Shown here piece by piece: positions 2,159-4,604 of a stretch of DNA of 8,598 bases. A program made the position numbers and the translations under genes. The DNA comes from a virus (lineage: Duplodnaviria; Heunggongvirae; Uroviricota; Caudoviricetes), in the IMG/VR virus record IMGVR_UViG_2802429224_000018. One strand, 5' to 3'. Every line of letters begins with the position of its first letter. Position 1 is the stretch's first letter. The notes under the pieces were generated by a model. That model did no database searches and had not been told where the DNA came from. It worked only from the letters and a program-made list of their open reading frames with translations.

Positions 2159-3088
2159 TCAGTAGTTATGTATTGAAGGAGGTAATTCTTTATTCTTAAG
2201 TCTCATCCATGCGGAAAGATTCGTTGGTCCGTCTGGCTCATTGATATCAACATCTCGTGTGTGATTGATTAAAACGTCTCTCGCCATTCCGATAACATAC
2301 GAGAACTCATGACCATAGTCGTAGCATCTGCCGGAATAGTTCGATTGAATTTGTTTTAGCGCCGGATACAATTCGCGGAATAATGCCTGTGAGCGGTTGG
2401 CATAATCCCATAACCATACAAGACTGTTTGCTTCTTTTGCAGAAAGCTCGTTGGTTTTCTTATCTTGTTTGCCGATGAACTCTCCTTCAAGCGGAACGCG
2501 AGCAGCAAGTGACAGTGCTTCGGTAAACTGCTCCTCACTGATTTCTTTGTACGAACATCCAAAATGGGATTTCAGTGACGACCACATGGTGATCATCGCC
2601 TTAGCCTGTTTTTCTTTTGGCAGAGACTGACCGCGACTCATGACGAGTTGTTTAATGGCTTCCTGCTGTTCAGTGGTGATTTTACCCGGCAACGCCTTTT
2701 TAGCTTTGCGTGGGTTAACTACATGGCCTTTAGTCCAGTACTCGTATAGCACATCGTCACACTCTTCCTGATACTGGATTACCTTGTCGCGGATTTCAGG
2801 GCGGACTTTGTTAGGACTGATGGTTTGCAGCCAGCCAGCAAGTTTGCGAAGTGCCAAACAAATAATCTCACGGCACTGTTCATCACCAGGAAGCTGCATT
2901 GTGATTTTCACAATGGAGGTTTTAAACCGTTGCTTTATTTTCGTAAACTGTGAAGCCCAATCCATACCCATTCCCTCAACGATAGGTTTCATTGGGGTGT
3001 ACGGATCACCGTTGTGATTGACGACATAAAGCTCTGCGCCGTGGAATGGCACGTTGATAGTAGATACCGCTGTTGCTATACTTTTCAT
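2159..3088 (-). CDS. ant: Antirepressor Ant (P22 immI-type)
   Basis: 309-aa ORF, ATG at 3088-3086 with AGGAA 9 nt upstream, TGA at 2161-2159. It lies immediately downstream of an Arc-like gene and divergent from an Mnt-like gene, which is the canonical immI arrangement. The N-terminus ([23 protein letters not shown]...) is recalled as P22 Ant-like; P22 Ant is ~300 aa. Confidence 0.8.
3054..3082 (+). promoter_or_regulatory. Psar-like sigma70 promoter inside the first codons of ant, firing antisense
   Basis: TTGATA (3054-3059), a 17-bp spacer, then TATACT (3077-3082) on the plus strand. The predicted start near 3089 is directly opposite the ant start codon. Confidence 0.5.
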
Positions 3089-3160
3089 GTCAATATTTCC
3101 TAAGCCGATTTGTTGATACCGAAGCCCTGACTGTTACAGCAGTTGGGGCTTCACTGTTTT
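3089..3160 (+). ncRNA. sar: sar-like small antisense RNA complementary to the ant ribosome-binding site
   Basis: The Psar-like promoter upstream and an intrinsic terminator (hairpin 3121-3152 plus T-tract to 3160) bracket a ~70-nt transcript. It is fully complementary to the ant Shine-Dalgarno and leader (3089-3105). P22 sar is 68-69 nt with the same placement and orientation. Confidence 0.55.
3121..3160 (+). terminator. Intrinsic terminator of the sar-like RNA
   Basis: GAAGCCC (3121-3127) pairs with GGGCTTC (3146-3152); the stem can extend to ~13 bp with two G-U pairs around a 6-nt loop. It is followed by ACTGTTTTGATTTCTTT on the plus strand only; the minus-strand side is not U-rich. Confidence 0.55.
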
Positions 3161-3320
3161 GATTTCTTTGCCGCATCAAGCATCACTTCTGAAAACGTGC
3201 GCTTGCCACTGAATACTCTTTCTCTTCTCAATTTTTCGTTCGTGCCAAATGATTCGCCATGAACAAAATTTGGTCTCAAAATGGTAAGCGCAATCTCTTT
3301 GACTACTGCATCCAAGCAAA

Positions 3321-3461
3321 TCACACTGTTACCCCCTCCCTCTTCAGGCTGTCCAGCACCCGTTTAATTACTTCTGCGCTGAATGAGCGACACTCTTCCT
3401 TTGCTTTTTCTTCAAGAATTTTTTCTAGCTTCTCTGGCATACGCAGTGTTTTTACCTTCAT
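3321..3461 (-). CDS. arc: Arc-like ribbon-helix-helix repressor (46 aa); not present in the supplied ORF track
   Basis: Manual translation of the minus strand: ATG at 3461-3459 with GGAGGA 4-5 nt upstream, TGA at 3323-3321. Product is MKVKTLRMPEKLEKILEEKAKEECRSFSAEVIKRVLDSLKREGVTV, which aligns with P22 Arc as recalled (NLRWPREVLDLVRKVAEENGRSVNSEIYQRVMESFKKEG): L-R-x-P, A-x-E-x-x-R-S, E-x-x-x-R-V and K-x-E-G are conserved. It is upstream of ant and divergent from mnt. Confidence 0.8.
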   Translation of the reverse strand: MKVKTLRMPEKLEKILEEKAKEECRSFSAEVIKRVLDSLKREGVTV

Positions 3462-3480
3462 TGCATCCTCCGTTGTATGT

Positions 3481-3540
3481 GGTACGCATACATAGTATTT
3501 AGGTACGCATTGATAGTCAATAGATACCTACATATCCTGT
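3481..3540. promoter_or_regulatory. Divergent Pant/Pmnt promoter-operator region
   Basis: Minus strand (Pant): -35 TTGACT (plus 3520-3515), 17-bp spacer, -10 TACTAT (plus 3497-3492). Plus strand (Pmnt): -35 TTGATA (3510-3515), 17-bp spacer, -10 TATCCT (3533-3538). The two -35 boxes overlap within the palindromic core TTGATAGTCAA. Around it sits a 31-bp imperfect palindrome centred at 3515 (TAGGTA...TACCTA outer arms, 11 of 15 arm positions symmetric) and a 15-bp direct repeat GGTACGCATnnATAG at 3481-3495 and 3502-3516. Confidence 0.55.
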
Positions 3541-3566
3541 GGTAAAAAATTATTCAGGATGTGCCG

Positions 3567-3818
3567 ATGTCTGATCGTAAGTACAAAAACCCTCAAGTGA
3601 ATCTGAGGCTTCCTGTAGAGATAAAGGAACGTCTTATTGAACTGGCTGAGGCTAATTCTCGTTCATTAAATGCCGAGATGGTCGCGGCACTTGAAGCATG
3701 GACCGAAAAAAATAAACACATTCAAGCACTAGACCTTGCAACTATAGCATCACGATTGATAGATCTTGAACGCGATGTTGAGACGCTAAAGACCATGTAT
3801 GGTAAGGATGAAAAATGA
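3567..3818 (+). CDS. mnt: Mnt-like ribbon-helix-helix repressor (maintenance of lysogeny; represses Pant)
   Basis: ATG at 3567 with AGGA 7 nt upstream; the track's GTG at 3561 is too close to the SD. 83 aa, TGA at 3816-3818. NPQVNLRLPVEIKERLIELAEANSRSLNAEMVAALEAW aligns with P22 Mnt as recalled (PHFNFRMPMEVREKLKFRAEANGRSMNSELLQIVQDAL). Same length as P22 Mnt and divergent from arc. Confidence 0.85.
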   Translation: MSDRKYKNPQVNLRLPVEIKERLIELAEANSRSLNAEMVAALEAWTEKNKHIQALDLATIASRLIDLERDVETLKTMYGKDEK

Positions 3819-4024
3819 ACAAAAAACAGTTTATTAAGTCAACAACGTCAAGCAAGGAAGAGCTAGAGAAGGAGCTAAACTCCCTGAAATATGCTCTGTG
3901 CCTGGTTTACTCAAGACTGCCAATGGAAGATAAAAACGCCATTTACAATGAAATGATTAGCAGCCTTGATTTTAACGATAGAGACCTAGCATCCCACCTC
4001 AACAGCTTCCGCGTCCCTGAGTAA
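3815..4024 (+). CDS. Hypothetical 69-aa protein, translationally coupled to mnt
   Basis: Its ATG (3815-3817) overlaps the mnt TGA (3816-3818) in an ATGA junction; AAGGA 6 nt upstream; TAA at 4022-4024. Predicted soluble and helical; I recognise no family. Confidence 0.6.
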   Translation: MNKKQFIKSTTSSKEELEKELNSLKYALCLVYSRLPMEDKNAIYNEMISSLDFNDRDLASHLNSFRVPE

Positions 4025-4184
4025 TTCTGTTGCGGATTTGCTTCTTGCGGTGGTTTAAGCTGGAGAGCTTGGCTTCTGCTTCTGATATTTGTGCATCAAG
4101 ATCTTTAAGCTCAAGATCTGAAAGTCGCTGGTCAAGCAAGGTTTGGTTCAACTCAATGTTGTTCAGGCGTTCTTCTATGGTCAT
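3999..4184 (-). CDS. Hypothetical 61-aa charged coiled-coil protein
   Basis: ATG at 4184-4182 with AAGGTG ~5 nt upstream. Heptad-like, Leu/Glu/Asp/Lys-rich sequence (LNNIELNQTLLDQRLSDLELKDLDAQISEAEAKL). Its 3' end overlaps the 3' end of the 3815-4024 ORF by 26 nt. Could be a chance ORF. Confidence 0.35.
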   Translation of the reverse strand: MTIEERLNNIELNQTLLDQRLSDLELKDLDAQISEAEAKLSSLNHRKKQIRNRITQGRGSC

Positions 4185-4209
4185 ATTGTCACCTTAGTGG
4201 GAGGTTGGT

Positions 4210-4509
4210 GTGAAGCGATGGGTTATAGGTGCATTCTGTTTTCTAATTAGTGGTCTTGCACAATCGCAAGATAAGGATCTGAAATTTGCTAACGACATGT
4301 TAGTTACAGCTAAAGTTGCTGGCATGTGTGGAACATTTAAACAAATGTTTGCTTTTCAAGAAGCAACCCAGATGCCAGGCGGAGATGAATTTATTGAACG
4401 TTTTTTGAATACGGAAATTTCTCGCCTAGGGATGTCACTTCAAGAGTTCATGAAGTTGTGCACAGATTCTATAGAGTCATACAATAAATTAAAAAGGATG
4501 TCAGAATAG
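4210..4509 (+). CDS. Hypothetical secreted (signal-peptide) protein, 99 aa
   Basis: GTG start at 4210 with GGGAGG 5 nt upstream. N-terminus MKR-WVIGAFCFLISGLAQS-QDK has the n/h/c organisation of a Sec signal peptide; the mature part (~80 aa) is helical with two Cys. TAG at 4507-4509. No recognisable family. Confidence 0.6.
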   Translation: MKRWVIGAFCFLISGLAQSQDKDLKFANDMLVTAKVAGMCGTFKQMFAFQEATQMPGGDEFIERFLNTEISRLGMSLQEFMKLCTDSIESYNKLKRMSE

Positions 4510-4523
4510 CCATCCATGGCTAT
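4506..4523. repeat. Perfect inverted repeat ATAGCCAT-cc-ATGGCTAT (8-bp arms)
   Basis: Read directly from the sequence. It overlaps the stop codon of the 4210-4509 ORF and sits just upstream of the SD of the mini-ORF, between the convergent accessory cassette and the gp16-like gene. Confidence 0.35.
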
Positions 4524-4535
4524 CTGGAGGTTAAT

Positions 4536-4604
4536 ATGGTAACAATCGGTTGGATTATTGTTGCCCTGCTTGTTGCTCTGTGGGCAAAGAATCGTTACTA
4601 CTGA
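4536..4604 (+). CDS. Candidate 22-aa hydrophobic mini-protein ([22 protein letters not shown]); not in the ORF track
   Basis: ATG at 4536 preceded by GGAGG with a 6-nt spacer; a single predicted transmembrane helix with a basic/aromatic C-terminus; TGA at 4602-4604. Caveat: its last 50 nt are antisense to the 3' end of the gp16-like gene, and antisense of Gln/Glu-rich coding sequence tends to look hydrophobic. Confidence 0.25.
   Translation: MVTIGWIIVALLVALWAKNRYY

Follow-up and report, generated by a model that had tools for sequence, protein, structure and literature searches.

The 8,598-nucleotide (nt) stretch of DNA analysed here (IMG/VR record IMGVR_UViG_2802429224_000018; hereafter the window) comprises the right end of the late region and the immI region of a P22-like (Lederbergvirus) prophage. 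This account concerns ORF69, an open reading frame (ORF) of 69 amino acids (aa) with an ATG start and a TAA stop on the + strand (3815-4024), and its relation to the gene that immediately precedes it, which encodes a predicted mnt-type ribbon-helix-helix repressor of 83 aa counted from its ATG (3567-3818, + strand; Pfam Arc, PF03869). The ATG of ORF69 (3815-3817) overlaps the TGA of mnt (3816-3818) as ATGA, an overlap of 4 nt, and in this the intact 69-codon frame is exactly as an earlier reading of the same DNA (the original prediction) had described it. The evidence set out below favours, at a probability of roughly 60%, the reading that ORF69 is a genuine accessory (cargo) gene of P22-like prophages, in whose immI region it fills a variable slot immediately after mnt.

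ORF69 and its junction with mnt

Since a frame of 69 codons could arise by chance, comparative evidence is decisive for whether ORF69 is a gene. Copies from 41 sources were compared (the window, the phages Kapi1 and Emek, and 38 IMG/VR contigs), and in every one of them ORF69 is intact at 69 codons with the same overlap. The 17 distinct DNA alleles among these copies differ at 18 sites, 14 of them synonymous (13 at third codon positions) and 4 non-synonymous. When ORF69 is compared with a variant of 80% identity carried by a different E. coli prophage, the ratio of non-synonymous to synonymous substitution rates (dN/dS) is 0.12 at a dS of 0.90, while the same DNA read in the two other + frames gives ratios above 1 and six to eight stop codons. 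Two profile searches, one of them exhaustive, extend the family to Proteus mirabilis, Providencia rettgeri, Rahnella and Enterobacter kobei, at 33-50% identity; the exhaustive hidden Markov model (HMM) search, covering 1.84 billion representatives, returned eight matches, three of which are real distant homologues and three of which were discarded as repetitive or low-complexity proteins. Across the homologues of five genera seven residues are invariant (M1, L24, L35, S50, D55, D57 and N63). The alternative that ORF69 arose by chance or has decayed, and specifies no functional protein, would fit its lack of a recognisable domain and its narrow distribution, but is effectively refuted by the substitution ratio, by the integrity of all copies, by the residues held invariant at such low identity and by a confident structural model. 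Judged from these sequence comparisons, ORF69 is a genuine protein-coding gene under purifying selection.

The start of this gene is built into the end of mnt. A Shine-Dalgarno (SD) sequence, AAGGA, lies 6 nt upstream of the ORF69 ATG and inside the last mnt codons (3804-3808, + strand), such that the stretch specifying the final four mnt codons, K-D-E-K-stop, also provides ORF69 with its ribosome-binding site and start codon. The junction GTAAGGATG[A/C]AAAATGA is kept in 41/41 copies, including the one in Emek, where the gene upstream of ORF69 is not mnt but orf77, which encodes a 77-aa protein with two transmembrane (TM) segments; in the Proteus and Providencia homologues the SD takes the form AAGGA[C/T]. 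The K-D-(E/A)-K-stop tail that the junction encodes is common to the four Mnt alleles that carry ORF69, and the ATGA overlap is kept behind at least four Mnt specificity types and across three genera, the homologues in Proteus and Rahnella showing the same overlap with mnt and the same kind of joint. With ATGA present in all 41 copies behind five different upstream genes, the stop/start overlap characteristic of a coupled gene pair is found throughout.

Strict translational coupling would call for an occluded or absent SD, and neither was seen: the AAGGA is unpaired in the predicted minimum-free-energy fold of the junction mRNA (z-score -1.8), which shows no SD-occluding structure, and the Providencia homologue retains its SD without any overlap to the upstream gene. 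As ORF69 has its own well-spaced SD, strict coupling is not required, and the claim of the original prediction that the protein is made whenever Mnt is made was overstated. No promoter-like site was found between mnt and ORF69, where the 4-nt overlap leaves no spacer, and neither a site scan nor mRNA folding found an intrinsic terminator after the ORF69 stop.

ORF69 matches phrog_16466 over its full length (residues 1-69 on profile positions 1-69 of 69, E 5.5e-51). Its description as an unknown gene stands as regards function, phrog_16466 being unannotated, though not as regards novelty: it is already listed as 'hypothetical' in Kapi1 (Kapi1_062, 'hyp23', QOC59578.1) and Emek (orf69, AFM54336.1). 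These two entries share 97-99% protein identity with ORF69, the same ATGA overlap and the same convergent partner, ORF61, and as unannotated hypotheticals they contribute no function; no paper assigning a function to ORF69 was found. Kapi1 and Emek are the only isolated phages to carry it among 50,697 records. Of 5426 complete E. coli genomes 76 have it, as do many Salmonella assemblies. In Kapi1 (L001, 3482-4425), the flank of the gene 16 homologue hyp19 on the ORF69 side holds homologues of ORF99 and ORF61 and possibly ORF69.

A mobile cassette in the slot behind mnt

ORF69 moves as a conserved mobile cassette of ~390 bp (3797-4185), whose left end lies inside the last mnt codons and whose other gene is ORF61. 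In a per-column identity profile of the 41 loci, conservation rises in the last mnt codons (~3797) and ends abruptly at 4185, the ORF61 start codon, with differing flanks. ORF61 (3999-4184, - strand, the strand of the late operon) encodes a 61-aa coiled-coil protein and belongs to phrog_7586; it is convergent to ORF69, and its last 26 nt overlap the ORF69 3' end. Its variable sites are synonymous in 20 of 25 cases when read in the - frame (dN/dS 0.17), a pattern by which ORF61, too, is judged to be a real gene. The Prokaryotic Genome Annotation Pipeline at times labels a longer version of it 'XhlA family', a label for which the Pfam match is insignificant.

The two genes travel together among close relatives, and the question is whether they also function together. 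ORF61 is present at fixed spacing in 41/41 ORF69 loci of E. coli and Salmonella, and in Proteus and Providencia the ORF69 homologue is likewise met by a convergent, overlapping ORF61 homologue that begins MTIEERL, the ORF69/ORF61 identities being 80%/75% in locus L057, ~37%/38% in Proteus and 50%/39% in Providencia. On the right-hand side of ORF61 the loci show at least five unrelated contexts, and nine of them have a terminator abutting the ORF61 SD. With no conserved upstream region and with this abutting terminator, ORF61 lacks a conserved promoter, and read-through by the antiterminated late transcript is the simplest way for it to be expressed.

These features would suit a defence and counter-defence (self-immunity) pair, in which ORF69, made in the lysogen, would block a step of superinfecting or co-resident phages, ORF61, read late, would neutralise ORF69 during the phage's own lytic growth, and the switch would be held in place by the convergent overlap, across which each transcript is antisense to the other (a 'noncontiguous operon'), as for Tai/Ati of phi80. 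In its favour are the co-occurrence at fixed spacing in all 41 loci, the co-divergence of both genes to ~38% identity, the probable dependence of ORF61 on late read-through and the architectural precedent (PMC11364771). The evidence for functional pairing is nevertheless mixed, as each gene is found alone. ORF61 occurs in 130 of 5426 E. coli genomes against 76 for ORF69, and follows ORF99-like cargo (8/19) and ClpP-like cargo (4/6) where ORF69 is missing; one of the ClpP-like loci (L052) retains a 73-nt relic of the ORF69 3' end between the ClpP-like gene and ORF61. Conversely, in Rahnella the ORF69 homologue overlaps the gene of a true P22-type Mnt by ATGA and has a terminator, not ORF61, behind it, and in Enterobacter-type siphoviruses the ORF69 homologue stands alone, on the opposite strand, between the tape-measure and DUF6246 genes. 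Moreover, the physical 26-nt overlap by itself explains co-inheritance among close relatives without any functional pairing, and no homology to Tai, Ati or any PADLOC model was found. A defence and counter-defence pair is regarded as unlikely.

The slot itself is better defined than any one occupant. Searching E. coli genomes with positions 3100-4560 (arc, mnt, ORF69, ORF61 and ORF99) returned 694 genomes, mostly through the arc-mnt part, as against the 76 that carry ORF69. The original prediction had looked to close relatives with an otherwise identical immI for absence of the ORF, and such an absence is found: the prophage of the O104:H4 outbreak strain has an arc-mnt block of 96% identity up to the ATGA exactly and then a different gene, of 104 aa, with the same 4-nt overlap. 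ORF69 is thereby marked as dispensable cargo, which does not imply that it is non-functional.

Among 80 surveyed IMG/VR loci with related Mnt proteins, ~41 have an ATGA-overlapping gene downstream of mnt, drawn from at least 10 unrelated families. ORF69 accounts for 15 of these loci and a 104/105-aa secreted protein homologous to ORF99 of the window for ~18; further ATGA cargo specifies proteins of 121, 193, 169 and 90 aa. In one locus (L109) the coupled gene encodes a 113-aa signal-peptide protein that matches a Rap1a-like immunity protein of the type VI secretion system (PF18602, E 1e-13), and a prophage with such cargo might confer immunity to a type VI amidase effector. Other spacings are also seen behind mnt. 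The start of a ClpP-like gene of 178 codons (PF00574, E 2e-11) overlaps the mnt stop by 1 nt (L052, 1161-1697; L063, L126, L132 and L136), a gene for a 92-aa protein begins 2 nt past the stop, and a tandem second mnt follows at 23-25 nt, the two mnt genes being of different specificity types in CUS-3 (L042, 2737-3266) and ~12 IMG/VR loci. The coupling proposed for ORF69 thus holds in that the overlap with mnt is genuine and conserved, and fails in that it is not peculiar to this gene: ATGA coupling is a general property of the cargo slot.

The 3' end of mnt exists in two forms, in which two C-terminal tails of Mnt mirror two 3' architectures (window 3797-3818 and P22, L043, 2740-2775). The K-D-(E/A)-K-stop tail corresponds to the SD and ATGA of a coupled cargo gene (AAG GAT GAA AAA TGA), and the K-K-(T/P)-T-stop tail to the stem of a bidirectional terminator (AAA AAA CCC ACC TGA...). 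The match of the two tails to the two architectures places a module boundary inside the mnt reading frame.

Beyond ORF61 in the window lies ORF99 (4210-4509, + strand; phrog_19844), a signal-peptide protein gene with a GTG start and a GGGAGG SD, which begins 25 nt from the ORF61 start. No promoter-like site serving it was found on the + strand between ORF69 and ORF99, and it is probably the distal gene of the + strand transcript of mnt and ORF69. Elsewhere the ORF99-like secreted protein of 104/105 aa is the commonest ATGA-coupled gene behind mnt, the O104:H4 outbreak strain included, and it looks as if the ORF69-ORF61 cassette has been inserted between mnt and ORF99. At 4506-4530, where the ends of ORF99 and gene 16 converge, stands a perfect 7-bp inverted repeat, TAGCCAT-CC-ATGGCTA, with no T-run; it may bind a protein or weakly terminate transcription in both directions.

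The remainder of the window follows the P22 layout. Homologues of the P22 ejection-protein genes 7, 20 and 16 occupy 8595-4555 on the - strand; arc (3321-3461), ant (2159-3088) and, at 1980-1, the gene of a tailspike whose N-terminus is the head-binding one of P22 lie on the same strand. A match to the P22 sar antisense RNA (3090-3155, + strand; Rfam RF00262, 62 bits, E 3e-11) sits between arc and ant, just upstream of the ant start, as in P22. The order of arc, ant and sar RNA is that of P22, and the immI of the window departs from the P22 layout only in the genes beyond mnt. Overlapping face-to-face promoter-like sites occur between arc and mnt at 3492-3538, a candidate Pmnt on the + strand (3510-3538) and a candidate Pant on the - strand (3520-3492); both are consensus matches only, and their function is proposed by analogy with the layout of P22 immI. 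Two elements in the same region are operator-like, namely a tandem 21-nt repeat starting GGTACGCAT and, at 3496-3534, an imperfect palindrome of 18 nt. The ORF upstream of ORF69 matches PF03869 above the gathering score (E 3e-10), has an alternative GTG start at 3561, and is annotated mnt or Arc family in relatives. From the Arc-family match, the position opposite arc and ant, and the face-to-face promoter-like sites, the gene at 3567-3818 is taken as the mnt equivalent of a P22-type immI.

Protein, expression and possible role

The ORF69 protein is small (8.1 kDa, isoelectric point 5.8, grand average of hydropathy -0.65), and no TM segment or signal peptide was seen on reading its sequence. 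AlphaFold2, given a 16-sequence alignment, models it with a predicted local distance difference test score of 82.6 as a disordered basic N-terminus followed by helices at residues 14-33, 37-48 and 53-65, in which the first turn holds the invariant L35-P36, and S50, D55 and D57, likewise invariant, surround the second. ORF69 is accordingly predicted to be a soluble three-helix bundle. The profile and structure searches called for by the original prediction succeeded in placing the gene in a family, phrog_16466, and yielded no informative match of fold or function. Scans of Pfam, PHROGs and NCBIfam with ORF69 and its distant homologues returned the unannotated phrog_16466 only, Foldseek found no match for the model in the PDB, and a comparison with BFVD gave nothing below E 0.99. 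The PADLOC-DB v2 defence models gave no match to ORF69 or four distant homologues at E values up to 1. The best sequence-profile matches in the PDB, at E 0.01-0.07, to the CLEC4M neck repeat and to 'IYSDLPQQER' of eIF4A/DDX6, were judged chance motif resemblance.

On the favoured reading of ORF69 as cargo behind mnt, the gene would have no promoter of its own and would be transcribed from Pmnt on the + strand as mnt-ORF69-(antisense ORF61)-ORF99, while in other loci the Pmnt transcript would run to a terminator right after ORF61; in the nine loci where a terminator stands beside ORF61, it would also end the mnt-ORF69 transcript. The - strand transcript would read gene 16-(antisense ORF99)-ORF61-(antisense ORF69 and mnt)-arc-ant-tailspike. 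Both layouts are inferred from the anatomy of the locus. Translation would proceed from the SD in the mnt tail, possibly helped by ribosomes terminating on mnt. ORF69 would then be made when Pmnt is active, that is, in the repressed prophage, and silenced when antiterminated late transcription crosses the region on the other strand. The product would be a small cytoplasmic protein, probably acting by binding another protein. With low confidence, a role in phage-phage conflict or lysogenic conversion may be proposed, a suggestion drawn from position, as the gene occupies the sieA slot in P22-like phages and its homologues lie beside the tape-measure gene in siphoviruses, in both cases opposite late transcription.

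Several points weigh against parts of this account. Kapi1 is the only phage carrying ORF69 for which lysogen RNA-seq is available, and there mnt (Kapi1_063) was below the detection threshold in both lysogeny broth (LB) and simulated intestinal fluid, whereas Kapi1_062, the ORF69 copy, is not in the list of undetected genes (PMC12922286). This is hard to square with simple co-transcription, unless the counts stem from the overlapping transcript of the late strand. In Gally, a P22-like prophage of strain LF82, LB gave no more than background expression of mnt, and macrophages a 40-fold induction (PMC9928086); ORF69 is absent from Gally, which was checked as a source of expression data. The description 'constitutively expressed in lysogens' may therefore be wrong, and Pmnt activity may depend on conditions. 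That ORF69 would be made in established lysogens is argued solely by the precedent of P22. Rho could end transcription within the 185 nt of untranslated sequence that separate ORF69 from ORF99, which leaves the extent of the operon uncertain. Finally, no homology or fold match gives ORF69 a function, and what would suggest a role in conflict or conversion is its position and the analogy with sieA, and nothing beyond these.

Two further readings of function bear on the same observations. The fixed ratio to Mnt that the coupled arrangement would provide might suit an auxiliary immI regulator, for example one that binds Ant, Arc or Mnt or stabilises the Mnt tetramer. Such a role is quite improbable. 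Relatives with the same mnt lack ORF69, the gene is found with many Mnt, Arc and Ant types (among ORF69 loci, Ant identity ranges over 46-98% and Arc identity over 39-96%), and homologues occur in siphovirus loci where no immI genes are seen, all of which would place ORF69 outside the Mnt/Arc/Ant switch.

The small size, tight linkage and convergent overlap of ORF69 and ORF61 would likewise be compatible with a toxin-antitoxin-like addiction pair, one partner being toxic and the other protective, possibly controlled at the RNA level through the 3' overlap. A weak lead in this direction comes from Kapi1, in which the gene 16 homologue hyp19 could not be deleted, plasmids bearing the flanks of that gene proved toxic to non-lysogens, and excision increased sharply; a flanking hypothetical gene was suspected by the authors, the extents of the flanks being undefined (PMC8787464). 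An addiction pair is nonetheless very improbable, given that each gene occurs without the other, so that their co-occurrence is not obligate, that the two are not co-transcribed, and that searches of Pfam, NCBIfam and PADLOC gave no match to a toxin-antitoxin family.

The most ambitious form of the proposal would make ORF69 a new 8-kDa anti-phage or exclusion factor produced with Mnt in the lysogen, ORF61 its cognate off-switch, and the ~390-bp cassette a defence and self-immunity unit that passes from one P22-like phage to another through recombination at the mnt tail; taken as a whole this is distinctly unlikely. Were ORF69, with or without ORF61, found to act on superinfection, few known factors of this kind would be as small, and should it have no such effect, it would be one more moron of unknown role. 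Taken alone ORF69 is of minor interest, as an uncharacterised prophage ORFan family already in the databases, and the joint together with the catalogue of its cargo is the more useful result. Many P22-like prophages, in E. coli, Salmonella, Proteus and Rahnella, use the mnt 3' end as a docking joint, its final codons also supplying the ribosome-binding site for the cargo gene that happens to follow; at least 10 unrelated families are represented, several secreted proteins among them. The result is a compact, searchable list of candidate lysogen-expressed functions, at the locus where P22 has the proven exclusion gene sieA.

Comparison with known systems

In P22 a bidirectional terminator hairpin (AAAAAAACCACCTGACGGCGGGTT, tail K-K-T-T-stop) contains the mnt stop, and 100 nt separate this from the start of ORF59a, the next ORF, which bears out the point made in the original prediction that P22 mnt has no coupled downstream partner. 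ORF59a was considered as a diverged counterpart of ORF69 and rejected, being an unrelated glycine- and lysine-rich peptide. The P22 arrangement (mnt - ORF59a - sieA - gene 16) is nevertheless alike in that the same slot is filled on the same strand, opposite the late operon. This slot, a known accessory region between mnt and the ejection-protein gene 16, holds in P22 sieA, a superinfection-exclusion gene that is expressed from the prophage and has its own putative promoter (PMC10461980). SieA is an inner-membrane protein, whereas ORF69 appears soluble and is unrelated to it in sequence; ORF69 has no Pfam match, and hence none to SieA (PF26849), and no TM segment was seen in it. The two can also coexist, as ORF69 is found together with SieA homologues (SIEA-domain genes) in loci L057 and L058.

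ORF69 resembles a moron in the sense of Juhala and Hendrix in being present or absent between near-identical phages and in having no relation to the function of the surrounding module; probable expression from the prophage would be a further likeness. It differs in that a classical moron has its own promoter and terminator, whereas ORF69 has neither, uses the transcription unit of mnt and takes its ribosome-binding site from the mnt reading frame. The gp15 exclusion moron of HK97 lies in the tail-gene cluster, and the distant homologues of ORF69 that adjoin the tape-measure gene in Enterobacter-type siphoviruses are comparable in this respect.

The Tai and Ati genes of phi80 are defence and counter-defence genes in a noncontiguous operon (PMC11364771). 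The likeness to ORF69 and ORF61 is one of architecture only: a prophage-strand gene lies opposite a Q-dependent late operon and beside a very small gene on the late strand, with mutually antisense transcripts. There is no similarity of sequence or size (TaiEcA is 26 kDa, ORF69 8 kDa), and ORF69 and ORF61 are separable in nature. Set beside these systems, ORF69 is an uncharacterised member of the prophage accessory genes of the immI/sieA region.

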